NCBI GenBank assembly: GCA_041674225.1 | Contig: JBAYWG010000001.1 | Span: forward strand, 169,401 to 233,400 | DNA: 64,000 nucleotides | DNA from: Minisyncoccota bacterium | Lineage (GTDB): Bacteria; Patescibacteriota; Minisyncoccia; Phycocordibacterales; JAACPR01 | Reading direction: 5' to 3' | Shown: positions 16,079 to 44,069 of the stretch, one piece after another | Numbering within the stretch: position 1 is the first letter of the stretch | Layout: each line of letters starts with the position of its first letter | Translations under genes and position numbers: made by a program | The notes under the pieces: model-generated | Databases searched by the model: none | Told to the model about the DNA's origin: nothing | Seen by the model: only the letters and a program-made list of their open reading frames with translations

Positions 16079-16080
16079 AC

Positions 16081-16120: not shown

Positions 16121-16151
16121 TAAGTAAGTTAAGCCTGTTTGTTGGTAAGGC

Positions 16152-17205: not shown

Positions 17206-17237
17206 TCTCTCTCCTTCTAGTTTTTATTGGTTATATC

Positions 17238-18023
17238 TTAACGAAACCTTTTCCGGAAAAACCGGGGTTTATATTTTCCTCCAAAACCCTTGAAAAAGGG
17301 TGGTGAATACGGAGCGAACCGCAAAGCAGTAACTTTCCGTTTCATTTCCTCCCGAAGATCATTACGAATTTCATCCAGTTTGTCCCAGTCATCTATGTCT
17401 TCTTCTGTCCATTTCCATGGAACAGAATGAAAAGCGAAACCCTTCTCCCAGTCATAAATTCCGAAATTGATATCTCCTTGACGATTTAAGATACCGCGCA
17501 AGAAAAAATCAGTACCGAAACTTTGAAAGATTTTCATCTGATCATTATCTTGACCAGATGGGTAAGTTCCACCATTTCCATGTGAATGTCCCCAGAAGCG
17601 TATGTTGTTGAAGATTTCGTCACCACCTTCTTTCGAAAGGATTTCCATGACAAATTCTTGAAGAGCTTCTGGAAGAATTTCAGTATGGCCACCGCTCACA
17701 GTCTGAGGAAAGAGGAACACGTCATCGATGATGAAGTCTTCTCCTAGTCGCCGAGCAGTTCCAAGCCACCCCACTTCAATATTGATTGCACCTACAATAA
17801 CGTACATCTTGAAGAGGGCCAATGGACTGACAAATACAGTCGGAATATGGTGTTTCAACGTCAGAACTTCCAGAGTTGTATGGAAAACATCCGACGGAGC
17901 AAAAAATTGTCCGTCTGTCTCTGCGAATTCCCATTGGTAAGGCTGCGGAGGGGTTGGAGTATATGGGCGAGGAGCACCAACAATTTTTGCTGGCAGAGGG
18001 AGTTTAGTATTGTTTTTTTTCAT
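17238..18023 (-). CDS. JAB/JAMM (MPN+) metalloprotease-domain protein with a ~120-aa N-terminal extension
   Basis: Exact JAMM signature WGHSHGNGGTYPSGQD (HxHx7Sx2D) with an upstream acidic residue. 32 nt upstream of the E1 gene. Confidence 0.8.
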   Translation of the reverse strand: MKKNNTKLPLPAKIVGAPRPYTPTPPQPYQWEFAETDGQFFAPSDVFHTTLEVLTLKHHIPTVFVSPLALFKMYVIVGAINIEVGWLGTARRLGEDFIIDDVFLFPQTVSGGHTEILPEALQEFVMEILSKEGGDEIFNNIRFWGHSHGNGGTYPSGQDNDQMKIFQSFGTDFFLRGILNRQGDINFGIYDWEKGFAFHSVPWKWTEEDIDDWDKLDEIRNDLREEMKRKVTALRFAPYSPPFFKGFGGKYKPRFFRKRFR

Positions 18024-18112
18024 TTAGATTCGATTGTGAAGGTTCTTTTTATACTACTTCTGTAATTCTTTTATTATATTTTAAGGGTTTTGTCAATACC
18101 CCACCCCTTTTT

Positions 18113-18152
18113 ATCTAATATAAAAAACCGCTCTCAGAAACTCTGAGAGCGG
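18113..18152 (-). terminator. Rho-independent terminator downstream of the 543-aa gene (stem accgctctcag/ctgagagcggt, T-run on minus strand)
   Basis: Read directly from the sequence. Confidence 0.6.
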
Positions 18153-18167
18153 TTTGACTTAAAGCCA

Positions 18168-19799
18168 TTATTTGATAGCAAGACTGCCATCAAATTCCTT
18201 CAAGAATTCCAGGACCAGCTCGATTACTGTTTCCAGATCGAGTTCTCCAAGAAGTTCCGGCAATGTCGCATGAAGAGGACCTATGGGTAGCCCTCCATCC
18301 CACATTGGGTGCAAATGAGGAATATTAATATCCGGCTCCATTTCGTTACCGATCGGAGAAATACTAACTAATCCTTTCAACACGTTGCACAAAATACGAA
18401 ACGATCCGATGTTGTGAATTTTTTCGGTTGAAATGTCCCTGCTTTTGATAGATCTAGTATCAACAACGAAGACATCATCTCCCTTGAAAAAGACACCCGA
18501 GACTTCCGGCCAGGCACTCACCCTTTGGATACGTTCATTGAACAAATCAGTGGTCACAGCAGCAGGAACCTTTACAAGGTTTTGGATAAAAACGTTTTGC
18601 GCTATCATCATCTGATTGCGACGAATATTATTCATCAACTTTTTCAGTTCATTTTCCTTATCCTGCTTCTGTGCTGCTCGTTCATCTACGAACAGATTAC
18701 GGAAAGCCGAGATCACGACAGGATCTTTAAGCGGTGGCTTTTTTGGATAATCGATACTTTTATCAACAACAGGAAACTTCCTCAAAACAGTGAGGTAATC
18801 TCCGTAATGAATTTCGTTTATCGTTCCAATTGCTTTAATGGCAACAAGGATGGACGCTTCGAACTCATAATCCTTGAGTAAAGGAAGAATAACCTTTCCT
18901 TCCCCCATACAAAATTGATTCGTGTACCGATCCACATGAGGATGACCAAAAGTGTGTCTTTCATACTCAACTCGACGAGTGAGGTTTTTAAACACAGCAG
19001 GTGTTTCTTCACCACCTCCAAAGAGAAGCTTGATCTCAAATTGTCCAAATTCATGAAGAATTTTAGTTCCGGGATCAACAGCATACATGGTCTGTGTGGT
19101 GAAAATGATTCTTCTACCATCCACTCTAATGTTCTGAATCTCAGGAATATTCCAAAGAGTTTGAAGCACCTTATCAGCTTCTTCGTAAGCTTGCTGGTTG
19201 TCATCATTCTTTGATACCAAAGAAGAAGTCAAAACAATATCGTTTTGAATCAGCCGACGATTTTCTGTAAGCTGTTTTTGAAGATCAACATCTTTCTTGG
19301 ACTTAGGAATTTTGAATTTCCCATTCTTGATTTGAACAAGACTAGGCAAATCTCCCCTGATGAGATTCATTGCTTCTGTAAGAATGTGTTTATACACATC
19401 CACGTTCGGCTTATTACAGCAATTGTTAGAAGCATCGTAAAGCAAATACAGATTATTTTTTCCAACGAGTTCTGCAACAGCATAATTGCTTTCAGGATCC
19501 ACAATAACAATCCCTCTACCAGAAGGTTGATATAGAGTACGATTACATGTACGAACTCTTTGTTTCCACAACTCGTCTGGAAGCGTCAATTCGACCTTAT
19601 CACCATCAGCAGTACCGAAGACGTTAAGAAAAAATGTAGTTGAAAAACGACGTACATCTCTTTGTCTTCCTTGACAGTTGTACAGTTGAATTTCATTGAA
19701 CCCCAATATTTCCAATGCATCACCCAAAACATCTCGGGTAGCTGATTCAAAAGAATCCGCAACACGAAAATCCCAATTTGTTTTTTCTATTCTTATCAT
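18168..19799 (-). CDS. Large hypothetical protein (543 aa) with a central UBC-like E2 active-site signature (ERHTFGHPHVDRYTNQFCMGEG; compare canonical HPN[IV]x3-4GxIC) flanked by uncharacterised N- and C-terminal regions
   Basis: Same strand and GC regime as the Ubl/E1/JAB genes. The E2-like call is motif-level only. Confidence 0.45.
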   Translation of the reverse strand: MIRIEKTNWDFRVADSFESATRDVLGDALEILGFNEIQLYNCQGRQRDVRRFSTTFFLNVFGTADGDKVELTLPDELWKQRVRTCNRTLYQPSGRGIVIVDPESNYAVAELVGKNNLYLLYDASNNCCNKPNVDVYKHILTEAMNLIRGDLPSLVQIKNGKFKIPKSKKDVDLQKQLTENRRLIQNDIVLTSSLVSKNDDNQQAYEEADKVLQTLWNIPEIQNIRVDGRRIIFTTQTMYAVDPGTKILHEFGQFEIKLLFGGGEETPAVFKNLTRRVEYERHTFGHPHVDRYTNQFCMGEGKVILPLLKDYEFEASILVAIKAIGTINEIHYGDYLTVLRKFPVVDKSIDYPKKPPLKDPVVISAFRNLFVDERAAQKQDKENELKKLMNNIRRNQMMIAQNVFIQNLVKVPAAVTTDLFNERIQRVSAWPEVSGVFFKGDDVFVVDTRSIKSRDISTEKIHNIGSFRILCNVLKGLVSISPIGNEMEPDINIPHLHPMWDGGLPIGPLHATLPELLGELDLETVIELVLEFLKEFDGSLAIK

Positions 19800-29425: not shown

Positions 29426-30382
29426 TTATTGTTCTCGGATGTCAGGGTTCACTAGACATCGAACAGGTCCTCCTGTCACAGAAAATTCTGTTTCTGGATT
29501 TTCACAACGAATTGTATAAGTACCTGGCTCCACGTCCATATCTACAGATGTAGTATTTTCTAATTCCAAACTTTCCAAATCCATAGGTACACTGTTTCTG
29601 TAAAGAATACATGAATCGGCACTATCAACTACCCAACTCAATCCACAAGTTCCACCTTCATTTGCAACACCAGTAGTCAAAGTTAGAGGAGAAGTAAATA
29701 CCGGTGGTGGCAATTCACAAGTGAAACTACTCTGACTACAGAATAATCCTTCAGCGCATTCATCATCCACCATACATTCTCTTATAAAAATCGAACAATA
29801 ACCTGTAGAAACATTGCTAGTGTCTGGATCGGTTATTCTCACACTTGCTGTTTTTGATTCGCCTTTTACAGCATAGTCAACAGGTCCAACATTTTGGTTA
29901 TTTTCTACACCAGTAATCGCAGTTCCTCCCCACAAATAATCAAATGGACCTTCTCCATTTGCTGCACTTGATTTCCAGTAGACATCTTCACCAACATTAA
30001 AAAATGTTTTTGGGACAGTAGCACTTAAAGAAGAATAAGCTGCACATGAAGCTTTGAACTCATCGACTTCTTGTATATGTGAACAAGACGCCATATTTGA
30101 AACCACTTCGCCAGTTCCAACAATCCTTGCTTCTACATTAACCAAATATTCTGTTGTTTCTTCAGGGTCATCATAAACAATATCGTATGCCCCACCATCA
30201 ACAGATCCGGAAGTAACTACTTCATTATCATTATTTTGAGCAAGTACGGTTGAGAAAACATTATTGGCAATTACATAAATTATTATTACAGCAACCACAA
30301 AAAATAATTGTTTAAATTCTTTACTTTCGATTTGCCATTTTTTTAATTTATTTTTTGTCATTTTTTTAAATTGTCTCATCAA
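29426..30382 (-). CDS. Membrane-anchored or secreted Cys-rich hypothetical protein
   Basis: N-terminal basic region followed by the LFFVVAVIIIYVIANNVF anchor and a Cys-rich C-terminal domain. 4-nt overlap with the upstream giant gene. Confidence 0.5.
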   Translation of the reverse strand: MMRQFKKMTKNKLKKWQIESKEFKQLFFVVAVIIIYVIANNVFSTVLAQNNDNEVVTSGSVDGGAYDIVYDDPEETTEYLVNVEARIVGTGEVVSNMASCSHIQEVDEFKASCAAYSSLSATVPKTFFNVGEDVYWKSSAANGEGPFDYLWGGTAITGVENNQNVGPVDYAVKGESKTASVRITDPDTSNVSTGYCSIFIRECMVDDECAEGLFCSQSSFTCELPPPVFTSPLTLTTGVANEGGTCGLSWVVDSADSCILYRNSVPMDLESLELENTTSVDMDVEPGTYTIRCENPETEFSVTGGPVRCLVNPDIREQ

Positions 30383-33300
30383 TTATTAGATGGGTAATAA
30401 TGCTCAGGACCATAACAAGGGTACTCCTCACCGTCGTAACTCTCACCAGGAGCGTCATAGGTACAAACACAACTTCCATCATCATAATTATATTTGGGAC
30501 CTGCAATTGAATCAAAATTGTCAGCCCAAGACACACGACATCCTCCACCATAATCACATCCATCGTATGCGCCTGTGTAAGGATTAACATAAGTAGGGTG
30601 TGTAGCCTGGGAGTTATAACTAGGATGAAGTGGGTCTCTACATCCAAAAATAACAGTTGTAGTAGGAGGATAAAATTGACACGCTTCATTCTTTCCATAA
30701 TTAGAAGATGGCCAACCTTGAGCGTTAAACTCTTCTTCACAAGCCGTACAAGGACACATCTCCAAAGAAACCGATTCTGAATCGTAAACAGTTCTAGTTA
30801 CTCCTTGATTAATACGGCTGCTACGTGTCCAACCATCAACAGTAACCGTATCTGAATCTTCAGCATCACTCAAATAACCAGATCTATTAATTGGAGCATC
30901 CCAACTATCACCATGTTTTCTTGTATCAGTTCTGATTCGACTCCCATTAAAATTTGTATTTATAAACCAAAGTTCTCCAGTGTTACAAGGATCCCTTAAA
31001 GATAAGGTTGCACCGATAACTGTGTAGCTTTTTCCATAATATAATCCTCCACACATATCTTTTTCATGTTCATAACAAGCTTGCAAGGTGGTAGCAACAT
31101 TCGTGATAGTAACTGAGGCTGGGGTTGTACATTTTGGTGTTTCAGCTGGCGGTTCAGTTGGAGGAGTATAAATTACACCACCAGAACTAGGACTTCCAGA
31201 TTCAGGCTCAACATCACCAGTCCAAACATATTCTAGTTCTTCTTGTGTATGGTCATCTGAATAGAAATTATCAATATACCAACCCACTCCTGGATTAGCC
31301 GCACAAGAAAGAGTCACAGGATACAAATTTTTTATTCCCACTCTAGATTTTAGAATTTCTCCAGCAGCAACAGGGAAATAACTGTTCCCCGGACTATATT
31401 CTGTATACCAAGCATCATTAAAGAAGTACTCTACACCAGTCTGAATCCAACCAAAACTGTTTGATGGATCTAACTTTGCAATATAATTCCCAAAATCAAC
31501 TGTTTTGAAAAAATAAGGAATATCATCAGGAGAATTACAATCCTGTGGAATCAGACCACCTAAAATACTTTCAGAAAATTGTTTTTGCACAGCACCCAAT
31601 GGAAGTCCTTCAACTCCTATACAATAAGAAGTCGCGTTGTTTGATTTTATATACGGCTCATCACTGTCTTTAAGACCGTCCTCACTGTAATCCAAATAAA
31701 AGCTCGATTGTATTTCAGAATCCAAAGCACACATCATTTGTCTATCGCTTCGACTTACATCTGTAAATTCTAAATTTTGTCTTGAATCTCCTTGTTCAAA
31801 ATCAACTCGACAATAGTCTCCCCCAAAGTCTGCTCTAGCCTCCAAACGATATGTTTGACTCAAGACTCCATTAGTTTCTACTCTTTGTGGATGATCAACA
31901 TCAAAACAAAATTCCTCCACAAATGGGCCAAAGATCCACTCGTTAACGCTAGTACTAGAGGTTGTATTCATATTCCAAGTTTTTGTTTTTGCAGGATCAA
32001 CAGTATCATTATAAAAATCAACAGTTACATCTACAGGTAAATTACCGCACGCTTTACAACTAACCTTCACATAAAATTCAACATCAGAACAACTGTTTTC
32101 ACCAGAACAAAGACCTTGATATCCTTCAGGTTCACCATCTGGAACAGACCAAATATCTATAAGATCTCCATATAGTATTGGTTTTGTTTGATTGCTATTA
32201 CCATCATTACTATCACCAGCGTCTTGGTAATATAGACATGTTCCATCGTTCACATTAGCTTGGTAGTTATAATTAGAAGCACTAGGATCAGTACAACCCC
32301 AATAAGTAATATATTCCTGGGCAGAAGCTAAATTATTTTTTGAATCAATTATAGTTCCTCCAACAAAAAGGAGTGCAATCGCAATACTTACAAGTGTAAA
32401 ATTAGTTTTCTTTTTTAAGAAAGCAAGCAATCCCACAACTACAACCAAGGCAAGCAGACTCCATAAAAGATTTCTAAGTAGATTAGATTTTGGGTATTCA
32501 AATATTTTATTTGGATCCATTGTTACAACTTGAGTATCTAAAATATTTCCATTCTCATCAGATAAAATCAATTCTATTTCATCAATCAAAGTTTTAGATT
32601 TTATTTTTTTGTCACTAAAGTCGACGTCAACGTCTGTTCCTTGAAAAGTCCCATTTAAATCAATCTCTTTTTCAACTTCTTGTATTACTTCACTTTTACT
32701 TTTAAATATTGCTTTTAGTGTAGCTTTTTTTGCCATCGGATCACCTGCCACAATTGTATTCACAATCAAACTAATAGGTTCACCTTTTCTGTACGAATTT
32801 ATATTTGTTTGAGTTTCATAAATTCTTCCAATCAATCCTCTATATAAAAGGCGAACTGATATATTTTCTGAAATTTGTTCCCCTCTAGCATTTTTAAAAG
32901 AAATAAAAGCAGTGTGTGAACCAGATAAAATATTTTCCCAAGGATCTATTTTGAACTCCAAAGCTTCACCGTCTTCTCTTATTAAATCTTCTAAGAGAAT
33001 ATTATTTTCTTCATAAACTATTTTAGCGTTATCCGATATGTGGGAAATTTTTATATCAGAATAAATATCTTCTCTAGCGATAGCATCAAACAATTCTTGA
33101 TTGGTGCTCTCTGGAAACGAAACAATATAGGATTTATCTTTTTCCAAAGTTGGACCCTCCATCAATTGATAAGAATTCTTAGTTTCCACATCCACGAGGG
33201 ACGCTTGTTTGTTAGAAATAAAAGTTCCTCTACCTGTCAGACGTAGAGGTTCTTTTGTATATGTAATTCCGTAATAAGAAAGTTCTTCATTAAAAACAGT

Positions 33301-33711
33301 TCCTCTTATAAAATAACTCCCCCCAGGGATGGTAGGCGGTAATTCATATTGAATAGTTTGTCTTCCGGATTCTCCAGGAGCCAATCTTGGAAAAGTATCA
33401 GACGTAGAAACTATATAGTCCAAATTTCTGAATAATAAACCTGTGGTTTCTAATTTTTCTCCATTATAAAATTCAAAACTATATTTCAAATTGTCGACAA
33501 AAGTTGTGGAGTTGTTTTGTACACTAAAATCTATACTTACCAATCTCTTATCAGATGAATACGCCGTGTTGTGTATTTCTACGACCAAAGGAATAGTCTC
33601 TTGTCTTACAACTTCTGAGGTTTGTGCAAAAATTTCTGCAGGAAATACAGAAGATAGAATTAAAGATAAAGATAGAATAGTAAAAAATTTACTACAAACT
33701 TTTTTAAACAT
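30379..33711 (-). CDS. Giant cell-surface protein (1110 aa) with signal peptide, a central hydrophobic segment and a Cys-rich C-terminal half containing a repeated GC[TR]DPxxxxYN...DDGSC-like motif
   Basis: MFKKVCSKFFTILSLSLILSSVFPAEIFAQT signal peptide. Motif copies: WGCTDPSASNYNYQANVNDGTC, FGCRDPLHPSYNSQ...YDGC, YNYDDGSCVC. Confidence 0.6.
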   Translation of the reverse strand: MFKKVCSKFFTILSLSLILSSVFPAEIFAQTSEVVRQETIPLVVEIHNTAYSSDKRLVSIDFSVQNNSTTFVDNLKYSFEFYNGEKLETTGLLFRNLDYIVSTSDTFPRLAPGESGRQTIQYELPPTIPGGSYFIRGTVFNEELSYYGITYTKEPLRLTGRGTFISNKQASLVDVETKNSYQLMEGPTLEKDKSYIVSFPESTNQELFDAIAREDIYSDIKISHISDNAKIVYEENNILLEDLIREDGEALEFKIDPWENILSGSHTAFISFKNARGEQISENISVRLLYRGLIGRIYETQTNINSYRKGEPISLIVNTIVAGDPMAKKATLKAIFKSKSEVIQEVEKEIDLNGTFQGTDVDVDFSDKKIKSKTLIDEIELILSDENGNILDTQVVTMDPNKIFEYPKSNLLRNLLWSLLALVVVVGLLAFLKKKTNFTLVSIAIALLFVGGTIIDSKNNLASAQEYITYWGCTDPSASNYNYQANVNDGTCLYYQDAGDSNDGNSNQTKPILYGDLIDIWSVPDGEPEGYQGLCSGENSCSDVEFYVKVSCKACGNLPVDVTVDFYNDTVDPAKTKTWNMNTTSSTSVNEWIFGPFVEEFCFDVDHPQRVETNGVLSQTYRLEARADFGGDYCRVDFEQGDSRQNLEFTDVSRSDRQMMCALDSEIQSSFYLDYSEDGLKDSDEPYIKSNNATSYCIGVEGLPLGAVQKQFSESILGGLIPQDCNSPDDIPYFFKTVDFGNYIAKLDPSNSFGWIQTGVEYFFNDAWYTEYSPGNSYFPVAAGEILKSRVGIKNLYPVTLSCAANPGVGWYIDNFYSDDHTQEELEYVWTGDVEPESGSPSSGGVIYTPPTEPPAETPKCTTPASVTITNVATTLQACYEHEKDMCGGLYYGKSYTVIGATLSLRDPCNTGELWFINTNFNGSRIRTDTRKHGDSWDAPINRSGYLSDAEDSDTVTVDGWTRSSRINQGVTRTVYDSESVSLEMCPCTACEEEFNAQGWPSSNYGKNEACQFYPPTTTVIFGCRDPLHPSYNSQATHPTYVNPYTGAYDGCDYGGGCRVSWADNFDSIAGPKYNYDDGSCVCTYDAPGESYDGEEYPCYGPEHYYPSNN

Positions 33712-35525: not shown

Positions 35526-35604
35526 ATCATTGATATTAATACTAAAAAATAAAAAACACCAATTAAAGTCTTCAGGGCCTAATCTAGCTCGACCCTATTG
35601 GTCG

Positions 35605-36858
35605 CTAGGAATATATTTTAGGTATATCTTCCCAAGAAGTTGTAAACTCGCCGGAAATAAATTTAGTGTTTGGTGCCCATTTTTTATCAACACCTTCAGA
35701 CGCTAGCCTCACTGTACCCTTTCCATAAATCAAATTCAGCGAATCAATTGATTTCATCAGTTTCTCAGTATCAAAAGTTTTTTGTCCAAATAAATCTTCG
35801 CTCTGACATGAATCTATTGGAACAAAATCTCCAAGCATGACGCCCGTCTTTTTATATTCAAAACCATCTTGATACATTGATTTCAAAATTTTATTTGCAA
35901 TTTTTGTTAGTTCAATCGTGTCCGACACAGGTTTGTCTAAAACAATTGATTCCGTTTGATAATACTGGGCAGTGTTAGTAAAACGATTTGTCGAAATTGT
36001 GATACTCAAAAATTTTGTTGCACTTCCTTCTTCTCTCATTTGTTGAGCACAGTTTGAGACATGATGTGACACCGACTGAAATAAAGTTTTAAAGTCTGAT
36101 ACATTTTTCCCGAAAGAACGCGAACTAATAATCGATTTTCGAGATTCTTTTTGAGCATCCATTAAAAGGCACGACTCACCTTTTAATTCTCTAGAAATCC
36201 GCAATAAACCAATTCCAAAGTTTTTTTGAATCCACTGATCATTTTGTTTAGTTAAATCAAGTGCCGAGTTGATCCCAAATTTTGATAGCGACAAAGAAAT
36301 CCTCGAACCAATTCCCCAAATCTTTCCAACAGAAACATCTTCCAAAATTTTATTGAGATTATTATCTTTTTCGATTTGATATACGACAGTTTTGTTATCC
36401 TTTGAAATTCTATTTGCGAGTTTAGCTAAAGTTTTTGTTGGAGCTATTCCAATTGAAACTGGTATTCCTGTGTATTGTCTTATTTTTGCGTGCAACTCCT
36501 CACAAAATTTTTTAGGATCACTCACGTCAGTCAAATCAATAAAAGCCTCATCGATAGAATATACTTCCATTTCATTTGAAAATTCTTGAATAATATTCAT
36601 TACCCGGTCTGACATATCTCTATATAATTTAAAATTGGTTGAGAAGATAGCGATTTTTGACATGTCATAATTATTTTTCATTTTAAAATGAGGAATACCC
36701 ATCGGGATCCCCATGTCTTTTACTTCTTGTGAACGAGAAATCACACAACCATCATTACTCGAAAGAATTAGTGTGGGCTTATTTTGTATTGAAGGATTAA
36801 AAACCCTCTCACACGATACAAAGAAATTATTACAATCAACAAGCGCGTAGGTTTTCAT
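35605..36858 (-). CDS. umuC: Y-family translesion DNA polymerase, UmuC-type
   Basis: LVDCNNFFVSCERVFNPSIQNKPTLILSSNDGCVISRSQEVKDMGIPMGIP aligns closely with the UmuC N-terminus ([41 protein letters not shown]). Confidence 0.85.
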   Translation of the reverse strand: MKTYALVDCNNFFVSCERVFNPSIQNKPTLILSSNDGCVISRSQEVKDMGIPMGIPHFKMKNNYDMSKIAIFSTNFKLYRDMSDRVMNIIQEFSNEMEVYSIDEAFIDLTDVSDPKKFCEELHAKIRQYTGIPVSIGIAPTKTLAKLANRISKDNKTVVYQIEKDNNLNKILEDVSVGKIWGIGSRISLSLSKFGINSALDLTKQNDQWIQKNFGIGLLRISRELKGESCLLMDAQKESRKSIISSRSFGKNVSDFKTLFQSVSHHVSNCAQQMREEGSATKFLSITISTNRFTNTAQYYQTESIVLDKPVSDTIELTKIANKILKSMYQDGFEYKKTGVMLGDFVPIDSCQSEDLFGQKTFDTEKLMKSIDSLNLIYGKGTVRLASEGVDKKWAPNTKFISGEFTTSWEDIPKIYS

Positions 36859-36859
36859 T

Positions 36860-37153
36860 TTAAATTAGTTTATGCACGACATGACAAACAACACCCCAAA
36901 CTTCTTGATCTTCTTGCTGTGAAAATTTTTGAATTACAAATTCTCCGTCTAGATTTACTAAAACAATACTTCCAATTTTTGGCGACACCGAACGATCTAT
37001 CACCAGTACATCATTTTTTGCAATAAGAAGTTCTGGCAAATCAAAACCTTCATATCTAAAATAAAAAGTTGCGTGTGGATGAAGTGTAACAAGATTATAT
37101 AAATCCAACCTATCGTGACTAACATTTTCTGCAGATTGAAATAACGGTGTCAT
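36860..37153 (-). CDS. UmuD'-like / LexA C-terminal (S24 peptidase fold) protein, 97 aa, apparently lacking the catalytic Ser-Lys dyad and the N-terminal cleavable arm
   Basis: YEGFDLPELLIAKNDVLVIDRSVSPKIGSIVLVNLDGEFVIQKF aligns with UmuD [20 protein letters not shown]...GDIVIAAVDGEFTVKKL, with GDSM replaced by GFDL. Stop is 1 nt before the umuC start. Confidence 0.6.
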   Translation of the reverse strand: MTPLFQSAENVSHDRLDLYNLVTLHPHATFYFRYEGFDLPELLIAKNDVLVIDRSVSPKIGSIVLVNLDGEFVIQKFSQQEDQEVWGVVCHVVHKLI

Positions 37154-37207
37154 CCGTATATTGTATCTTTTATTTTTCTAGTCTGTCAACTTTTCTAGTT
37201 TTAAGTT

Positions 37208-37618
37208 TTAAACGACCTTACTCAAATCTCCCTCTATTAAAGTCGGATTAAAGCCAATAATCTCATCTTTTAGAATTCCTTCTGGAATATTAGCAAACAA
37301 AAATATTTTTTTATTTAATTTAAACGCATCATACATTTCCAAAAAAGTTGCGCCTCCAATGTAGTTTTGAATTCCATGTTTTTCAAAATTCAAAACAAGC
37401 ACTGCATCCTGATTATTTATCACACTCTCACTGTGTTTAATCATCGAAGATTTCCATTTTGAGTGTTCATCAAATCCAAGATCTCTGTATCTAGCCTCTG
37501 TCCCTGGATCATCAAAGCAATTCGGAAGTGTTACAACATGACCAGCGTCTTCTAGTTCATTTTTTATTTCAGGTATTTTATCGTAAAAGACCTTGCTGCA
37601 AATTAAAAATAATTTCAT
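37208..37618 (-). CDS. Hypothetical protein, weakly nucleoside 2-deoxyribosyltransferase-like (Rossmann-like, MKLFLICSKVF...DAVLVLNFEK...GGATFLEMYDAFKLNKKIFLF)
   Basis: Start set at the internal ATG (37618), 8 nt after the stop of the upstream gene. The longer 186-aa ORF overlaps that gene. Confidence 0.4.
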   Translation of the reverse strand: MKLFLICSKVFYDKIPEIKNELEDAGHVVTLPNCFDDPGTEARYRDLGFDEHSKWKSSMIKHSESVINNQDAVLVLNFEKHGIQNYIGGATFLEMYDAFKLNKKIFLFANIPEGILKDEIIGFNPTLIEGDLSKVV

Positions 37619-37625
37619 ACTAGAA

Positions 37626-38132
37626 TTATAACCCCCTACTATCATATGCCCAATGTAACACAGCTTGCCTTTGCCTAGCACGACAACTCTCGTCACCTTT
37701 CCTGCAATTTTTAACGATTTGCGCAATGTGTCGACTAATCGCCTTCCATCTCTTGATTTGTCTTGCATCCTCTTTTGGAATCCGACGTCCTAAATAATAT
37801 CTACAATACCATTGAAACCAACCTCGCGGATCTTCGTTATAAATCCAACCTTTCTTTTGCCATTCTTCCAAAGACTGCGATGCTTTTATACCAAAATAAT
37901 TTTTATCTTTCTCGTATTTTCCAGATACAGACAGGCTCGCTCCCTTAAACCAATCTTTCGGAAATTCATCATGCTCTCCATCAAAATATTTTCCTCCAAA
38001 TATTCCCAGTTTCAACATTTGCTTCGGTGTCAGATCCGGTTTGAATTCAGGATCAAAATTCTTCCCCTCTTTTTCAGTGAGTGTGTATTTGTAGTTTTTT
38101 TGATATCTATCGTTTACTTTTACTTCTTTCAC
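37626..38132 (-). CDS. Hypothetical protein (168 aa, Trp/Tyr/Arg-rich: GWFQWYCRYYLGRRIPKEDARQIKRW)
   Basis: GTG start preceded by GGGAGGTGG, which is part of the repeated intergenic module. Confidence 0.5.
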   Translation of the reverse strand: MKEVKVNDRYQKNYKYTLTEKEGKNFDPEFKPDLTPKQMLKLGIFGGKYFDGEHDEFPKDWFKGASLSVSGKYEKDKNYFGIKASQSLEEWQKKGWIYNEDPRGWFQWYCRYYLGRRIPKEDARQIKRWKAISRHIAQIVKNCRKGDESCRARQRQAVLHWAYDSRGL

Positions 38133-38140
38133 ACTAAAAA

Positions 38141-38186
38141 TATACCACCTCCCAAAACAAAAAACACCTCAATATTGAGGTGTTTT
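38141..38186 (-). repeat. Intergenic terminator/RBS module, copy 1 (hairpin acacctcaa-tat-ttgaggtgt + T-run + GGGAGGTG on the minus strand)
   Basis: About 40 of 45 nt identical to copies 2 and 3. Confidence 0.7.
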
Positions 38187-38198
38187 GGGAACTAATCC

Positions 38199-39095
38199 TT
38201 ATAAAGATTCAATCATTTTCCCATAAGCATCAAAAGACTTTTCCGCATTAACACGATCTTTACCTCCCTTTTTATAGTCCTCAACATTATCAATCAATCC
38301 TGATAAAAATGAATTTGTGATCAATCTAGCCAATGAAAGTTTGTTATTACTCTCCTCTTCATAAGAGTCAATAATATGTTGGAAGTGATTTGGAAAATCT
38401 CTAATATATCTAGAAAACTCTCTTGCAGTTTCACCATATTCGGAATTACCAAAATCGATAAAACCAGATATTTTTTTATCTTTTATTAAAACATTTTCGT
38501 GATGAGCATCGTTGTGAATAAATTGAAAAACAGACTGATCCAAAGTTGTGTCAAAAATACTTTTTGCTTTCTGAGCTAAATCTATCATATTTTTTGGCAA
38601 AGACTCATCAGAAATAATTAAATGATAATCTGCTAACACTTCTAAATGAAGTCCTGTAGAGTCGTCAACCAAGACACCCATTTCATTTGCGTTTTGTTTA
38701 CTAATTATTTTACCGATTTGGGCATGAAAATATCCAAGATTTCGCAAAATATCAATTCTTTCTTCTTCTGATAAATCTTTCCAAACATTACGCAGAGTAT
38801 CACCCTCAATAAATGAATATCCATACATGTCTGGATCTTGGGAAACAAAAATAACTTCAGGAACAGGAATTGTTAAATTTGATTCATATAATTTCTGTGC
38901 AACTTTTGCTTCAATAACTAAACTGTTTTGAGGAGTAAATTCTTGAATTTCTTTTTCCACTTTTACAATACATTTTTTACCAGTCTTAGTTTCCAAATAA
39001 TATGCGTTGTTAACAAACCCTGACGCTTTTAATTCAAATTTAGTAATTTTCTCTTTTATTATTTTTTCAATATCACCCCTTAAGTCTTCTGACAT
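38199..39095 (-). CDS. Aminoglycoside phosphotransferase (APH)/choline-kinase-like small-molecule kinase
   Basis: HNDAHHENVLIKDKKISGFIDFGNSEYGE (HxDxxxxN...DFG) catalytic and Mg-binding loops of the APH family. Confidence 0.75.
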   Translation of the reverse strand: MSEDLRGDIEKIIKEKITKFELKASGFVNNAYYLETKTGKKCIVKVEKEIQEFTPQNSLVIEAKVAQKLYESNLTIPVPEVIFVSQDPDMYGYSFIEGDTLRNVWKDLSEEERIDILRNLGYFHAQIGKIISKQNANEMGVLVDDSTGLHLEVLADYHLIISDESLPKNMIDLAQKAKSIFDTTLDQSVFQFIHNDAHHENVLIKDKKISGFIDFGNSEYGETAREFSRYIRDFPNHFQHIIDSYEEESNNKLSLARLITNSFLSGLIDNVEDYKKGGKDRVNAEKSFDAYGKMIESL

Positions 39096-39104
39096 ACAAA
39101 AAAT

Positions 39105-39146
39105 ATAGCACTTCCCAAAACAAAAAACACCTCAATCTTGAGGTGT
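39105..39146 (-). repeat. Intergenic terminator/RBS module, copy 2
   Basis: cacttcccaaaacaaaaaacacctcaatcttgaggtgt. Confidence 0.7.
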
Positions 39147-39170
39147 CGATAAGTTAAGTTGTTGTATATA

Positions 39171-39968
39171 TTAAATTTTCTTTTTCCAAAACACTCTACT
39201 ATTCACAGGCTCACCTTCTTCTCTTGATAATGAAATTTCATTTGTTTCAACTCTTTCAAAATCAATACTTTCTGGAACCGTCTCATACAAAAGCTTGGCT
39301 TTTGTATCCTTCATTAAACCCGCATATTGTTCTAAAATTGTTTCAGAAGTCGGCATAAGAAACACATCAACGCCAATTTCTTTTGCAGCTGACTTAACAT
39401 CTTCCAACAATTCCTTTTGATAATTTGGAATACTACCGGCACCAAAGCACTTATTACATTTTACATATTCTGTTTTAGTAACATTCACACCCCCTTTTCC
39501 ATTGCACATCTCACACTTATCACGACTTACTTCTTTAAGTTTCTTATTCTTGGTTTTTTGTAATAGATCAGATTGAATCTCCTCGATAAGCCAAGCCTTT
39601 TCAAATACACCTAAATCGCTTACAACATTTCTTTGACTTATTTTCATCCAAGAGTAAACCTCCAGAGGTTTATCTGTTCTGAAATGTGAACTCGTATGCA
39701 TATAATCTAACTCGGCGTCACCTAATTCATAAACATTAATCATTTCTTCTAACGAAGCTTCTTTGATTATTATTATTCTATCTCCTTCACCTCTTTTAAC
39801 ATAAGGCAAAATATCCGAAGAAAATGCTTTTAATCCATCTTTCAAAATACCATTATTTAATCTTTTTACAGTCTCATTAATATCTTCTATACTTTCAATA
39901 TCATTCTCTATTTCATCATCAAAAATAGTTTGAGGAAATTTTTCTTTCATATACAAAAATTCTACCAC
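39171..39968 (-). CDS. Hypothetical protein with C-terminal CxxC...CxxC zinc-ribbon (CEMCNGKGG...CNKCFGAGS)
   Basis: 265-aa ORF. The true start may be the second Met (MKEKFPQ). Confidence 0.5.
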   Translation of the reverse strand: MVEFLYMKEKFPQTIFDDEIENDIESIEDINETVKRLNNGILKDGLKAFSSDILPYVKRGEGDRIIIIKEASLEEMINVYELGDAELDYMHTSSHFRTDKPLEVYSWMKISQRNVVSDLGVFEKAWLIEEIQSDLLQKTKNKKLKEVSRDKCEMCNGKGGVNVTKTEYVKCNKCFGAGSIPNYQKELLEDVKSAAKEIGVDVFLMPTSETILEQYAGLMKDTKAKLLYETVPESIDFERVETNEISLSREEGEPVNSRVFWKKKI

Positions 39969-40009
39969 TCTCCTAAAACAAAAAACACCTCAATCTTGAG
40001 GTGTTTTTT
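39961..40009 (-). repeat. Intergenic terminator/RBS module, copy 3 (directly abutting tRNA-Asp)
   Basis: ctaccactctcctaaaacaaaaaacacctcaatcttgaggtgtttttt. Confidence 0.7.
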
Positions 40010-40015
40010 GAACTG

Positions 40016-40089
40016 CGCGAGTGATGGGACTCGAACCCACGACCTTCCGCGTGACAGGCGGACGCTCTAACCAGCTGAGCTACACCCGC
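40016..40089 (-). tRNA. tRNA-Asp (anticodon GUC)
   Basis: Hand-folded: acceptor GCGGGUG/CACUCGC, D-arm GCUC-AGCUGGUUA-GAGC, anticodon arm UCCGC-CUGUCAC-GCGGA, T-arm GUGGG-UUCGAGU-CCCAU, discriminator G. Confidence 0.85.
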
Positions 40090-40170
40090 AAATGTGTAAG
40101 CAAATTACATAACAAATGCGTTTCGCTACTTTACCAAATAAAGCTCTGTTTATCAAATACCCCTAACGTG

Positions 40171-40244
40171 TCCCGAGGGACGGAATTGAACCGTCGACCT
40201 TAGCTTTATGAGTGCTACGCTCTAACCAACTGAGCTACCCCGGG
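40171..40244 (-). tRNA. tRNA with CAU anticodon (elongator Met or Ile2/lysidine type; C1-G72 paired, so not an initiator)
   Basis: Hand-folded: acceptor CCCGGGG/CCUCGGG, D-arm GCUC-AGUUGGUUA-GAGC, anticodon arm UAGCA-CUCAUAA-AGCUA (A31:A39 mismatch), T-arm GACGG-UUCAAUU-CCGUC. Confidence 0.7.
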
Positions 40245-40292
40245 ATTCTACAAAACCTTTGCAGAACACACTATAATAGTATCAGTCAATTT

Positions 40293-41264
40293 TTACAAGT
40301 CGGAGTCCAATTCCACACTTTCATTAACCAAAAACTCAACCTCTTGCTCTAGTCTTATTCTCACAGAACTATCTAAAGTTGTTGAAGCATTAGTGAAATC
40401 AGATCCCAATATCTCCTCTTTTGCTTCCAGCACGATATCGTCTACAAGAGACTCGACCTCTTCAACTCGAGTATTTGAAATATCTTCCACATGTTTAGAT
40501 AGAGCATCTAGCGCAACATTTCTTAATGAACGAAATTTTTCTCGCATTTCTTTTTTATCGTTTTCTTTTTCTGTTTCTTCTTTTAGCTCAACTAATTCAA
40601 CTTGTTCATCTTCGGCTTTTTTTTCATCAATATCTTTATCATCAACTTCTTCTTTTGTTTCAATTTCAGATATGATAGAGAAAGATACAGAAGCATCTAG
40701 TTCTCCGGTTTCTTCAGACAACCCCAAGACATCTTCACTAATATCTAGAGCAGCGACAACCACTTGATGATCTTCCAATGTATCTTCTTCCGAATCTTCA
40801 GAAACTTCCAAAGCCAAAATTACATCAGAAACATTTTCTTCCAAAGCCTCTTCAAAATCTACAAGTGCATCCTTTTTTATTTCACCCTCCCTAGCAAGAA
40901 TTTTTATTTCACTCACTCTTTTTGTTAAAAGAGATTGATAGTATTCGTTCTTCTCTTCTTTAGGAACAAATGCAGCTTTTACTTCTTCATTTATATTTGT
41001 TTTTACTTTATACAAAACATCCCCGGGCAAACTTCTTTCAGCAGCAAAAGAAACAGGCGCTCCAATAATTGCAAACATTATCAAAGCCGCTGGTACTGCG
41101 CGTAAATAAAAAGACCAAGCAAAGAAAGGTGACGGTTGTGCAACTGGTGTAATTCTCCCAAAAATATTTGATTTTAGATTTTCTTTTTCAGAAACACTCA
41201 AAGACACTTGCTTGTACGCATTTTCAAAATTTTCAATATCTTTTTGTAATTTTGGGTTATTCAT
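40293..41264 (-). CDS. Putative membrane-anchored anti-sigma factor / acidic hypothetical protein
   Basis: 8-nt overlap with the upstream ECF sigma gene. Single TM (AVPAALIMFAIIGAPVSFAA) after a short cytoplasmic N-terminus, and a highly acidic extracytoplasmic C-terminal half. Function inferred from position only. Confidence 0.4.
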   Translation of the reverse strand: MNNPKLQKDIENFENAYKQVSLSVSEKENLKSNIFGRITPVAQPSPFFAWSFYLRAVPAALIMFAIIGAPVSFAAERSLPGDVLYKVKTNINEEVKAAFVPKEEKNEYYQSLLTKRVSEIKILAREGEIKKDALVDFEEALEENVSDVILALEVSEDSEEDTLEDHQVVVAALDISEDVLGLSEETGELDASVSFSIISEIETKEEVDDKDIDEKKAEDEQVELVELKEETEKENDKKEMREKFRSLRNVALDALSKHVEDISNTRVEEVESLVDDIVLEAKEEILGSDFTNASTTLDSSVRIRLEQEVEFLVNESVELDSDL

Positions 41265-41808
41265 TTTTTTCTTTTTTATTATATAAATCTTCTAACTGTG
41301 CGAGTGCTCTATGCAATCTCACAGAAATAACATTTTCACTTACACCATGTATATCAGCAATTTCTTTTACAGAAAAGCCTTCAATGTGTCTCAATAAAAT
41401 CAGATCGGAATCTTTCTTTTCTATAAGACCGAGCATCTGATTTAGATCTGAAGCAATTATTGTTTTTGAAATATCTTGGCTATTATCCGCGATATCAAAA
41501 CCTGCTTCAGACAGCGTATCCAATGAAGAATGATGCACATCTCTCTCGTAGCTATTCACCAAAAGATTATGAGCGATTCTATATAAAAGAGCTTTTGGGA
41601 ATTCCACATCTTTCCCTTTTCCAAGATACGATTGCCACATCCGAACAAACACCTCTTGAGTCAAATCAAGTGCTTTTTCTTTGTCTCGAATACGAAACAT
41701 CAAATATCTGAAAATGTCATCAACATAAGCGTCGTACAACATTTCCATATTTTTTCGGCTTTTATTATTCATTGAATATGTACGTATTCGCAACTGGTAA
41801 CCCTGCAA
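41257..41808 (-). CDS. ECF-type RNA polymerase sigma-70 factor
   Basis: Region 2 (ALDLTQEVFVRMWQSYL...ALLYRIAHNLLVNSYER) and region 4 HTH (ILLRHIEGFSVKEIADIHGVSENVISVRLHRALAQL). Confidence 0.85.
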   Translation of the reverse strand: MQGYQLRIRTYSMNNKSRKNMEMLYDAYVDDIFRYLMFRIRDKEKALDLTQEVFVRMWQSYLGKGKDVEFPKALLYRIAHNLLVNSYERDVHHSSLDTLSEAGFDIADNSQDISKTIIASDLNQMLGLIEKKDSDLILLRHIEGFSVKEIADIHGVSENVISVRLHRALAQLEDLYNKKEKNE

Positions 41809-41956
41809 ATACTGATTTCTTACATTCTATGTAAGATTTTAGCTCCTGCGGTGTCATTAATAGTGGAACCCCATGTACTCTGACAATTAAATATTACTCA
41901 GAAAAGCATGGAGTTATTATAGTTAACAACACACTTATAAGTATAACAATATTACT

Positions 41957-43981
41957 ATGAATCAATCTAATCAAAAATTTGATGTGGTTTGGCACTCAAG
42001 AATCAGCCGCACATTAAAGAAACTAAAGAAAAGTACTGCCCAAATGACAGTAGCTTTAGTGATGGCAGCAATTATTGCTGTTCCATCAGTAAGCGCACTA
42101 ACATCAAGCGATGTAGAATTATTAATCGCACTTGGAATCATTCCAGCTGATAAAGCCGCTGTAGCACGAGCTGCTGTTTCAGGAAATTCAAACACAGTAT
42201 CATGTGGTGTTTTCATGAGAGATTTAACTCTTGGATCAACAGGATCTGATGTAGTCTCTCTACAAACATTTCTTGAATCAAAAGGAAAACTAACAATGCC
42301 AGTTGGAGTTTCAAAAGGATATTTTGGACAACTAACAAGACAAGCTCTTGCGAGTTACCAAGCTTCAGTTGGAATTGCTCCAGCTGTAGGATATTTTGGA
42401 CCAATCACTAGATCAAATGTTGCTCTAGCATGTGCTCCAGGAAATCCAAATCCAGGTACACCTAACAATCCAAACCCAGAACTTTCAAATAAGGAAGCAA
42501 GACTTTCTGATTACGACCGAGAGAACTCATATTCAAATGAAACTCTTGAGGAAGGAGAAACAGCAAAAGTTTTTGCTGCTGAATTTTCTGTGGAAGATGG
42601 AGATGTAAAAATAGACCGTGTAGATATTGCTCTTGAAGCAGTGTCAGAAACTAACGAGGATGAACCTTGGAAACAAATTGAATCTATTACTTTGTTCATC
42701 AACGGTGACGAAGTTGATTCAATGGATGTAGATAGCGAAGATGATTGGTCACGAGAATCAAGTACAGAAACTCCTACAACTAGCCGAGCCTACGAAGTAA
42801 GATTCGCTGGATTGGATACTGTAGTTGAAGAAGGTGATGACGCTCTAATCGAAATTGAAATCAAAACATCAGACCGAATTGATGACAACGATCTAACACA
42901 ATCATGGAAAATTTGGATCCCAACAGATGGAATCCGAGCCGTGGATGGAAAAGGAATTGATCATTATGAAGGTTCAAACTCAGAATCAACAGAATTCGAA
43001 ATCGAAACTGCTGATGATGGTGATGTATCAATTCGTTCAAGTGATGATGATCTAGATGCATCTATCTTGGTTGTAGATACTGACACTAAATCTTCATCAT
43101 ACGAAGTGTTTAGATTTGAAGTTGAAGCAGATGATGCTGATATTTTCCTAAACACTCTTACAATCGTAGCTTCAACTTCTGATAACAACATTAATGATGT
43201 TGTATCAGAACTTACAGTTGAAATTGACGGAGACGAATTTGATTTCGACTCAGTATCAACTACAGCTAACGTAGGAGAATACCTATTCGACTTTGAAGAT
43301 AACAACGATGACGTTGGTGTGGACAAAGACGATACTGTTGAAGTAGTTGTATTTGTAAGATTCCACAAAAATACAGGAAACTATGCAGATGGTACTACTG
43401 TACAATTTGGAATCGGAAAAATTGATGGTTCTGACTACGGTGATATTGGAATCACAGCAGAAGGACAATCAACTGGAGACAATGCTGATGTAACAGGACG
43501 ACAAGAAGGTTCTCTACACACATTGAGAACAGAAGGAATTTCAACTACCTCAACTGGTAATACATTCACTTACCGAGACAACCTAACAGGTACATTGTCA
43601 GACGATGAAGGAATTTACAAATTCCAAATAAGAGTTACAGCTCTAGAAGAGGATGCTTGGATCGACAACAGTGTTGCGACAACATCATCAACAACAGCTG
43701 GATTTGTAGCGACTGTCACAGGAGATACATTCAATGGTGAATCATCAGCGAGAATTGCTGACACAACAGCAGATGTATTAACTAATAATCGATACAAAAT
43801 TTCAGAAGGAACTTCAGAGACATTCGAGATTGTAGTAGAACTTGATCCAGCTACTGCAGGAGCATATGGTTTGACACTTTCAAACATCAACTTCGCAATC
43901 AGCTCAAATGGAACACAAGTAGAATACGTTGTACCGAATGAAACTCAATACAGAATTTCAAGTAAAACAATCAAAAATTAA
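41957..43981 (+). CDS. Secreted protein with N-terminal peptidoglycan-binding (PG_binding_1-like) repeats and a long acidic Asp/Thr/Ser-rich region
   Basis: Signal/anchor MTVALVMAAIIAVPSVSA. Two repeats of the DLTLGSTGSDVVSLQTFLESKG...GYFGQLTRQALASYQ / GYFGPITRSNVALAC type. Confidence 0.6.
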   Translation: MNQSNQKFDVVWHSRISRTLKKLKKSTAQMTVALVMAAIIAVPSVSALTSSDVELLIALGIIPADKAAVARAAVSGNSNTVSCGVFMRDLTLGSTGSDVVSLQTFLESKGKLTMPVGVSKGYFGQLTRQALASYQASVGIAPAVGYFGPITRSNVALACAPGNPNPGTPNNPNPELSNKEARLSDYDRENSYSNETLEEGETAKVFAAEFSVEDGDVKIDRVDIALEAVSETNEDEPWKQIESITLFINGDEVDSMDVDSEDDWSRESSTETPTTSRAYEVRFAGLDTVVEEGDDALIEIEIKTSDRIDDNDLTQSWKIWIPTDGIRAVDGKGIDHYEGSNSESTEFEIETADDGDVSIRSSDDDLDASILVVDTDTKSSSYEVFRFEVEADDADIFLNTLTIVASTSDNNINDVVSELTVEIDGDEFDFDSVSTTANVGEYLFDFEDNNDDVGVDKDDTVEVVVFVRFHKNTGNYADGTTVQFGIGKIDGSDYGDIGITAEGQSTGDNADVTGRQEGSLHTLRTEGISTTSTGNTFTYRDNLTGTLSDDEGIYKFQIRVTALEEDAWIDNSVATTSSTTAGFVATVTGDTFNGESSARIADTTADVLTNNRYKISEGTSETFEIVVELDPATAGAYGLTLSNINFAISSNGTQVEYVVPNETQYRISSKTIKN

Positions 43982-44006
43982 TAATTTCTGATTAGTTGAA
44001 AGAAAG

Positions 44007-44040
44007 CAAAAGGCCGCCCGTAAGGGCGGCCTTTTGCTTT
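44007..44040 (+). terminator. Rho-independent terminator (stem ggccgccc/gggcggcc, loop gtaa, T-run), A-run upstream so potentially bidirectional
   Basis: Read directly from the sequence. Confidence 0.7.
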
Positions 44041-44069
44041 GTCTGTTTTATTAGCTTCAATCTAACTTG

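Follow-up and report, generated by a model that had tools for sequence, protein, structure and literature searches.

A putative terminator-promoter module repeated between genes beside tRNA-Asp in a Candidatus Paceibacterota chromosome

Introduction

The promoter-early stem-loop (PeSL) cassettes of T4-type phages are composite promoter/terminator repeats that lie in hyperplastic regions, directly upstream of ORFans (Arbiol et al. 2010, PMC2839356; Comeau et al. 2014, PMC4122927). PeSLs recombine with one another, such that an open reading frame (ORF) found between two PeSLs in one genome corresponds to a single PeSL in a relative, and mini-circles are generated in the process (PMC2839356, PMC4122927). 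In the current study we describe a repeat of comparable make-up from a cellular chromosome. It is a module of about 60 nt that occurs three times, beside tRNA-Asp, in a 64,000-nt stretch of DNA (contig JBAYWG010000001.1, nt 169,401 – 233,400; hereafter the window) from a Candidatus Paceibacterota metagenome-assembled genome, the window lying within ENA contig k141_1090819. Each copy appears to place an intrinsic terminator and a promoter for leaderless mRNA between two neighboring genes. Two further pieces of background are relevant. A Pribnow box situated 6–8 nt from gene starts is the computational signature by which GeneMarkS-2 recognizes leaderless transcription (PMC6028130), and both gene exchange among Patescibacteria and natural competence are on record (PMC12455944).

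Three module copies at consecutive gene junctions

On balance we consider it probable that the module is a terminator-promoter boundary unit, native to the junction of tRNA-Asp and a kinase gene, which has been multiplied via gene insertion or exchange between copies. Three direct copies were found, all on the minus strand (nt 38133–38186, 39096–39147 and 39951–40010), and this agrees with a sequence-only reading of the window that had noticed repeats at these sites. A repeat search of the window returned them as a 61-nt family (nt 38123–38183, 39086–39146 and 39944–40004) with ungapped identities to the reference of 89% and 67%. The hairpin pattern AAAACACCTCAATNTTGAGGTGT gave five matches, representing the same three sites, two of which are palindromic and match on both strands, and there were none in 100 dinucleotide-preserving shuffles; chance would yield no module copy. 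The conserved unit is about 55–63 nt in length, not 45 nt as the sequence-only reading had it, and extends to the start codon of the following gene. Read along the minus strand, each copy consists of a hairpin, TTTTTTGTTTT, a G-rich box, the motif TG(G/C)TA(T/G)A(T/A)T, a gap of 6 nt (8 nt in copy 3) and the start codon. The latter is GTG at nt 38132 after copy 1, and ATG at nt 39095 and nt 39950 after copies 2 and 3. The hairpin consensus of the window copies is ACACCTCAA-nn-TTGAGGTGT. The copies and their parts, with scores from covariance model R1, are as follows.

nt 39951–40010, minus strand: copy 3, tRNA-Asp / Zn-ribbon gene junction (82.1 bits)
nt 39985–40004, minus strand: copy 3 hairpin core (A/T-extended, nt 39980–40009)
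nt 39975–39985, minus strand: copy 3 T-tract
nt 39968–39974, minus strand: copy 3 G-box, AGGAGAG
nt 39959–39967, minus strand: copy 3 extended -10, TGGTAGAAT
nt 39951–39958, minus strand: copy 3 gap of 8 nt
nt 39096–39147, minus strand: copy 2, Zn-ribbon gene / kinase junction (74.3 bits)
nt 39127–39146, minus strand: copy 2 hairpin core
nt 39117–39127, minus strand: copy 2 T-tract
nt 39111–39116, minus strand: copy 2 G-box, GGGAAG
nt 39102–39110, minus strand: copy 2 extended -10, TGCTATATT
nt 39096–39101, minus strand: copy 2 gap of 6 nt
nt 38133–38186, minus strand: copy 1, kinase / Trp-rich gene junction (82.5 bits)
nt 38164–38183, minus strand: copy 1 hairpin core
nt 38154–38164, minus strand: copy 1 T-tract
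nt 38148–38153, minus strand: copy 1 G-box, GGGAGG
nt 38139–38147, minus strand: copy 1 extended -10, TGGTATATT
nt 38133–38138, minus strand: copy 1 gap of 6 nt

The readable part of the genome amounts to 80.4 kb (the window plus 16.4 kb) out of at least 476 kb, and covariance models recovered only these three full copies from it, all within 1.9 kb, with the next matches scoring 19 bits or less. A candidate fourth copy at nt 35546–35560 has a similar general layout, shares only GGTGTTTTTTATTTT with the modules, lacks a matching hairpin (z = -0.7) and is not matched by the model, and was rejected. Across genome, metagenome and viral collections, the full module was found in two other genomes only, L013 (nt 9941–10003) and L014 (nt 840–902), linked in both to the kinase; the viral contigs gave no match. 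L014 carries a second, decayed copy (nt 1830–1894; 36.7 bits, E = 3.5e-6 when that copy was left out of the model), which will be referred to as L014-down and the intact one as L014-up. In total, six copies are known from three genomes: three in the window, one in L013 and two in L014.

The predicted promoter half of the module

The 3' half of the module would be a TG-extended -10 promoter of the sigma-70 type, set for leaderless mRNA. The extended -10 motif (TGnTATAAT-like) reads TGGTATATT, TGCTATATT and TGGTAGAAT in copies 1 to 3, TGGTATATT in both L013 and L014-up, and TGATATATT in L014-down, and there is no -35 element. Alignment of the six copies shows the hairpin 3' arm, the T-tract and GTGnTAnAnTTT to be constant. 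The -10 is separated from the start codon by 6, 6 and 8 nt in copies 1 to 3 and by 6 nt in all three external copies, and because the -10 ends 6 nt before the start codon, the +1 position would fall on the start codon itself. The decayed copy of L014 has lost its hairpin (-1.4 kcal/mol), yet TGATATATT-6 nt-ATG is complete.

The G-rich box is far less regular. It had been described in the sequence-only reading as a Shine-Dalgarno (SD) sequence immediately before the start codon, but it lies 13–15 nt (copy 1), 15 nt (copy 2) or 17–19 nt (copy 3) away, with the TG(G/C)TA(T/G)A(T/A)T motif in between. The six copies have the variants GTAGA (L013), GGAGA, AGGAGA, GGGAA, GGGAG and TCAGTG (L014-down). 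GGAGG or GGAG is present in three of the six and is degenerate or absent in the others, the anti-SD of this organism being assumed to be canonical. Since the -10 and its spacing have been kept, even in the copy without a hairpin, while the G-box varies, selection seems to have acted on the former and not on an SD.

Gene starts elsewhere in the genome point in the same direction. In 80 kb of genome (L001, L034 and L035), 55 gene starts taken from the independent calls of the source pipelines were compared with 1017 internal in-frame start-like codons as controls, an SD core being defined as GGAG, GAGG or AGGA at 4–10 nt upstream. A -10-like hexamer stands 5–9 nt upstream of 27 of the 55 starts, compared with 27 of the 1017 controls (odds ratio 35, p = 8e-24), and is TG-extended in 16 of these 27 starts. 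No SD core was found at any of the 55 called starts (0/55), while 72 controls (7.1%) have one, and among operon-internal genes the count is likewise zero (0/21). A cruder version of the analysis, based on the longest ORFs, agrees. In the syntenic relative L013 a -10 hexamer is found at 8 of 21 starts and an SD core at one of the 21. Counterparts of the module that are unrelated in sequence (hairpin, T-tract, TGnTAnAAT, about 6 nt, ATG) occur at the window starts at nt 3811, 5170 and 33711, and the same layout is present 5' of a kinase homologue in L031 and of a Trp-rich homologue in L008. This Paceibacterota genome thus appears to be without SD-led initiation; a full-text literature search found no report of leaderless or SD-free initiation in Patescibacteria.

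The probable terminator half of the module

Each window copy has a stem of 8–9 bp with a 4-nt loop, the core having a folding energy of -10.8 kcal/mol, reaching -17.9 kcal/mol when the flanking A/U runs are included. The U-rich tract TTTTTTGTTTT follows directly 3' of the stem and is identical in the three window copies, L013 and L014-up. Copies 1 and 2 were picked up by a terminator scan, and in copies 1 and 3 a run of A precedes the stem, giving a symmetric hairpin. The hairpins begin shortly after the upstream features: 5 nt past tRNA-Asp, 24 nt past the Zn-ribbon stop codon and 12 nt past the kinase stop codon. The hairpin and T-run at each junction form a credible intrinsic (Rho-independent) terminator, as had been supposed from the sequence, and that of copy 3 is the predicted terminator of tRNA-Asp. 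When the whole window was compared with Rfam at the gathering threshold, no RNA family was found over the module, and the five tRNAs were the sole matches. A regulatory switch in which the hairpin 5' arm (CACCUC) pairs with the G-box was also considered; this pairing can form in copy 1 alone (-7.6 kcal/mol if the 3' arm is kept from pairing) and is absent from copies 2 and 3, so the idea was rejected as unconserved.

Simple hairpins of this kind are found in other organisms. A scan of the genome collection gave five unrelated single matches (Macrococcus, Polaribacter, Clostridium and Oscillospiraceae). A first metagenome pattern gave no match, and a broader one matched 16 loci, which fall into about three unrelated contexts and all lack the promoter half. 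The bare hairpin and T-run turn up in groundwater contigs, where a tmRNA gene is adjacent, as well as in TARA marine contigs and a small number of Firmicutes and Bacteroidota genomes. These external matches were judged convergent because a 7–8 nt stem with homopolymer flanks is to be expected in very many terminators.

Terminator hairpins built around the words CACCTC/GAGGTG (anti-SD-like/SD-like) are a separate observation. They were seen in unrelated metagenome contigs (L016, L020–L024, L026–L029), several of which carry a tmRNA gene (L021–L024, L028), and take the form of long, perfect, bidirectional palindromes, AAAACAAAAAACACCTCA....TGAGGTGTTTTTTGTTTT, in L023, L024, L028 and L029. A comparable terminator, CCACCTC....GAGGTGG, is found in L013 at nt 841–870. 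Their recurrence is assumed to be convergent.

Gene neighborhood and comparison with relatives

The genes and tRNAs around the modules are listed below; the Trp-rich gene is of a family widespread in the Candidate Phyla Radiation (CPR).

nt 40170–40244, minus strand: tRNA-Met (CAT), upstream partner of tRNA-Asp (ARAGORN, Rfam)
nt 40015–40089, minus strand: tRNA-Asp (GTC), 5 nt from copy 3 (ARAGORN; Rfam 71.4 bits)
nt 39171–39950, minus strand: Zn-ribbon protein, 259 aa, between copies 3 and 2 (weak CxxC zinc-ribbon matches only)
nt 38199–39095, minus strand: APH-family kinase, 298 aa, between copies 2 and 1 (Pfam PF01636, E = 1e-17)
nt 37626–38132, minus strand: Trp-rich protein, 168 aa, 3' of copy 1 (highly conserved CPR family)
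nt 37208–37618, minus strand: 136-aa gene, 3' of copy 1
nt 36860–37153, minus strand: S24 umuD-like gene (Pfam)
nt 35605–36858, minus strand: Y-family polymerase umuC-like gene (Pfam)
nt 35526–44068, no strand: variable zone, from a conserved 335-aa gene (with adjoining tRNA-Met) to an ABC transporter (from comparison with L013)

L013 shares both flanks of this zone with the window: on one side lie a ligase, GatC, GatA and the 335-aa gene, and on the other side the ABC transporter, followed by genes for a giant protein and an epimerase. The interval in L013 contains the tRNAs, a single module and the kinase, beyond which the genes are unrelated, and its gene content agrees with that of the window only in the tRNAs and the kinase. 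The order tRNA-Asp – copy 3 – Zn-ribbon gene – copy 2 – kinase in the window is thus tRNA-Asp – module – kinase in L013, and the window has in addition the block of Trp-rich, 136-aa, umuD and umuC genes behind the third copy. Comparison of the two genomes shows the module as the native tRNA-Asp/kinase junction of the lineage, because L013 has tRNA-Asp, one module and the kinase between conserved flanks. The left part of the L013 module is closer to copy 3 (31/36 positions, against 28/36 for copy 2) and its right part to copy 2 (20/24, against 17/24 for copy 3), as expected when an insertion splits one module, or when a deletion merges two. These comparisons agree with much of what the sequence-only reading had proposed for the region, that is, a border formed by tRNA-Asp and tRNA-Met, which lie directly upstream on the coding strand, and a variable zone beside them, where L013 has other genes between the same conserved flanks. 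Its suggestion of cassette-like gene shuffling stands only in part and in a PeSL-like form, supported by the single L013 module where the window has module, Zn-ribbon gene, module and kinase, and by the edges of the shared block described next.

Core genes of the window and L013 show identities of 50–69% at the protein level and about 67% at the DNA level; for the kinase the corresponding values are 88.6% and 88.8%. The 88.8% block extends from nt 39146 of the window, where the copy-2 hairpin begins, to nt 38199, the kinase stop codon. A corresponding block in L014 has 88.2% DNA identity over nt 39146–38195. Because such a block is about 88% identical where core genes are about 67%, with edges at the hairpin and at the kinase stop, we infer that the unit of hairpin, T-tract, promoter and ORF has been transferred between fairly distant Paceibacterota, with breakpoints at the module. 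Module copies flank the kinase in the window and in L014, hence in two genomes out of three (one of the L014 copies being decayed); kinase homologues outside L013 and L014 are at most 60% identical, occur in other contexts and have no module. Among themselves the window copies are 82–84% alike, and compared with those of L013 and L014, 76–80%.

A short motif, TTCCAACAAC-GTCCAC(G/A)AG, follows the kinase stop codon in L013 (nt 10898–10965) and L014 (nt 1803–1823), and also the gene preceding the L014 module (nt 756–776). It is shared at 18 of 20 nt, and one in 2000 shuffles was as good. After the kinase stop the window retains only AGTTCCCAAAAC. The motif of L013 and L014 could mark the 3' end of a cassette, or be what is left of a tRNA.

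The three genes that follow the module copies differ in their distribution. The Zn-ribbon protein is a near-orphan with eight homologues, all at 42% identity or less, and its gene is missing from L013. The Trp-rich hypothetical, by contrast, had been counted as an accessory gene but belongs to a widespread and highly conserved family, with more than 8000 homologues at 65–90% identity across the CPR, and its gene heads the run of Trp-rich, 136-aa, umuD-like and umuC-like genes. In all relatives examined the module is absent 5' of the Trp-rich gene, and the gene neighborhood there varies. L011, for example, carries the Trp-rich/umuD/umuC genes at 82–84% nucleotide identity, without the 136-aa gene, and its Trp-rich gene (90% identical in protein) overlaps a different upstream gene. 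Searching the cassette proteins with PADLOC (defense systems), PHROG and NCBIfam gave nothing informative beyond the APH and zinc-ribbon similarities.

Several other features of the region were noted in passing. The 136-aa gene (here nt 37208–37630, minus strand) has its own TATAAT-6 nt-ATG within the last codons of the Trp-rich ORF (AGGGGGTTATAATTCTAGTATG). At nt 40245–44068 the window has about 3.9 kb of additional sequence between two tRNA-Met genes that are about 90 nt apart in L013, carrying an opposite-strand gene for a 674-aa protein, an ECF-type sigma factor (nt 41257–41808) and a 323-aa protein whose gene overlaps that of the sigma factor. Between the convergent 674-aa gene and tRNA-Met lies a GC-rich, perfectly symmetric hairpin of 17 bp (nt 44003–44040; AAAGCAAAAGGCCGCCCGTAAGGGCGGCCTTTTGCTTT), which is probably a bidirectional terminator. 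The giant protein adjoining the ABC transporter (1110 aa; nt 30379–33711, minus strand) has no Pfam match on record, and is only 31% identical to its positional counterpart in L013 (1250 aa; nt 15737–19489), far more diverged than the neighboring genes.

How the module copies may have arisen

As a boundary unit, the module would act in the following way. The hairpin and U-tract would end the upstream transcript, i.e. that of tRNA-Met/tRNA-Asp at copy 3, of the Zn-ribbon gene at copy 2 and of the kinase gene at copy 1. Directly after the U-tract, the TG-extended -10 promoter (TGnTAnAnT, no -35) would start transcription at, or 1–2 nt before, the AUG or GUG, giving a leaderless mRNA, and the G-rich box would sit in the promoter spacer (about -14 to -22), untranscribed from the module promoter. 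Single genes could have been inserted, or be exchangeable, at the junction through recombination between module copies, which would account for the three copies in this strain, and each inserted gene would thereby obtain its own terminator and promoter, in the manner of the PeSL cassettes of T4-type phages. The module and kinase unit would itself have been exchanged between fairly distant Paceibacterota.

A number of points weigh against this account. Termination, promoter activity and the transcription start are all deduced from sequence. Copy 1 would yield a leaderless mRNA beginning with GUG, and leaderless initiation at GUG, although common in mycobacteria, works poorly in E. coli. The G-box is purine-rich in five of the six copies, with GGAGG or GGAG in three, and the promoter reading leaves this unexplained. 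The genome is at least 476 kb in size and the 80 kb covered here contain three copies, so that the 'cassette system' amounts to one locus in three genomes. At 82–84% versus 76–80% similarity among the copies, duplication, import together with each gene, and gene conversion are inseparable, and the change may have been either an insertion in this strain or a deletion in L013. Finally, no recombinase or integrase domain was found among the genes within ±10 kb, and 55–60 nt is short for efficient homologous recombination.

A bolder form of the same account is speculative, and we regard it as rather doubtful. It would see in these repeats an integrase-free, PeSL-like gene-cassette system of CPR (Paceibacterota) chromosomes, in which the module beside tRNA-Asp serves as portable homology and genes move between distant lineages. 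A single gene would leave with one module copy and re-insert by way of mini-circles or DNA taken up by natural transformation, and genes would reach distantly related lineages already carrying their expression signals. If true, a mechanism known only from T4-type phages would be extended to cellular genomes with leaderless, SD-free initiation.

Among the alternatives, ordinary local duplication or gene conversion of one spacer would assign the module no role in gene movement, the genes having arrived separately and the spacers having been homogenized later. It is in keeping with the slightly closer similarity of the window copies to each other than to those of L013 and L014, and with the involvement of a single locus. 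However, it leaves unexplained both the block of about 88% identity that begins exactly at the hairpin in comparisons with two genomes, and the module copies on either side of the kinase in L014, an independent second genome. The sequence-only reading had linked this explanation to a repeat found only three times beside genes conserved in relatives; the count is indeed three, but only the Trp-rich gene of the three is broadly conserved, and its neighborhood is variable. We consider simple duplication unlikely.

The module might instead be primarily an attachment (att)-like site for site-specific recombination, by which a small integrative cassette inserts at the 3' end of tRNA-Asp; a recombinase encoded elsewhere would act in trans, and the terminator and promoter functions would be secondary. 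The array adjoins tRNA-Asp. In L013, the DNA past the kinase stop codon matches the tRNA-Asp 3' end and trailer at 13/15 nt (23 in 2000 shuffles were as good), and a second, unrelated terminator, possibly the displaced original, comes next. L014 has CTCACGCAGTT ahead of its module, together with the 18/20-nt motif that its flanks share with L013, and the remnant search gave a weak match at L014-up (10/11 nt; 75 of 2000 shuffles as good). These similarities are short, uncorrected for multiple tests and missing from the window, where remnants of the tRNA-Asp 3' end in the variable zone are at chance level. The lack of a recombinase domain within ±10 kb also counts against such a site, as do BLAST matches to phages and plasmids that are confined to tRNAs, and the hairpin itself, which is a short, perfect palindrome without bulges and has no known att or attC features (R''-L''/L'-R' pairs, a GTTRRRY core or extrahelical bases). 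An att-like site is, in our view, quite unlikely.

The original interpretation as a terminator plus SD cassette, in which the hairpin serves as an insulator and the ribosome is brought to the next gene by the GGGAGGTG box of a leadered or read-through transcript, draws on the complementarity of GGGAGGTG in copy 1 to the canonical anti-SD CACCUCC, on GGAG in copy 3 and L014-up, and on the purine-rich character of the box. The spacing of 13–19 nt compares poorly with the usual 5–10 nt, the box varies while the adjoining -10 is constant, SD cores at functional spacing are no more frequent at called starts than at internal codons, and the anti-SD complementarity is assumed, as the 3' end of the organism's 16S rRNA gene lies outside the window. 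This makes an SD role improbable. The further suggestion of a dispersed repeat of the repetitive extragenic palindrome (REP) or miniature inverted-repeat transposable element (MITE) type, present by chance in three adjacent spacers, is hardly tenable: the palindromic core does lie between A and T runs, and the bare hairpin and T-run do occur in unrelated contigs and genomes, but the full copies are confined to 1.9 kb of the 80.4 kb read here and to the two kinase-linked relatives, the external matches are without the G-box and -10 half and stand in unrelated contexts, and neither terminal inverted repeats besides the hairpin nor target-site duplications were found at the copies.

Significance and comparison with known systems

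If a boundary unit joining terminator and promoter is the correct reading, this Paceibacterota lineage would start about half of its genes from promoters that abut the start codon, with no SD signal, which bears on the calling of gene starts and on expression design in CPR bacteria, organisms that are only now becoming genetically tractable. A terminator and promoter fused in one unit of about 60 nt, and copied whole, would be economical for a streamlined genome. Module units would also stand at the breakpoints where a gene has passed between lineages with only about 67% DNA identity in their core genes, providing a concrete route for gene flow, parallel to the PeSL mechanism, in organisms with few recognizable mobile elements. 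If the reading is wrong, the module is simply a locally duplicated spacer.

Of the systems described elsewhere, several share part of this arrangement. Rho-independent terminators, including bidirectional ones, likewise consist of a GC-containing stem-loop and a U-tract, and copies 1 and 3 are symmetric; unlike in ordinary terminators, the U-tract of the module passes straight into the next promoter, and the whole conserved unit appears to have been copied together. Integron cassettes with their attC sites similarly form arrays of single-gene units parted by a palindrome-containing repeat, but here there is no integrase nearby, the R''-L''/L'-R' and GTTRRRY elements are lacking, and each unit would have its own promoter. 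The 'group C' leaderless genomes of GeneMarkS-2 resemble the module genome in having a Pribnow box 6–8 nt from the start and no SD (PMC6028130). They are mainly high-GC Actinobacteria and Deinococcus-Thermus (PMC6028130), and their operon-internal genes usually keep an SD, in contrast to the 0/21 found here.

The closest parallel is with the PeSLs. Both are short repeats in intergenic spacers that combine a promoter with a stem-loop terminator (in the case of the module, as judged from its sequence), both lie upstream of variable or orphan ORFs in a hyperplastic zone, where two copies and an ORF in one genome correspond to one copy in another, and in both each shuffled gene would receive its promoter and its terminator from the repeat. 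PeSLs differ in belonging to phage genomes, in their number (about 50 copies) and length (about 100 bp), and in having sigma-70 boxes at both -35 and -10, with an SD closing the repeat at its 3' end. The PeSL stem-loop is usually inside the promoter or overlaps it, while that of the module is upstream of the extended -10. The module, for its part, resides in a CPR chromosome, where 80 kb contain three copies, and has neither a -35 nor a functional SD, with a predicted leaderless start; it shows no sequence similarity to PeSLs. On these features the module is best described as an analogue of the PeSL, not a member of that family.

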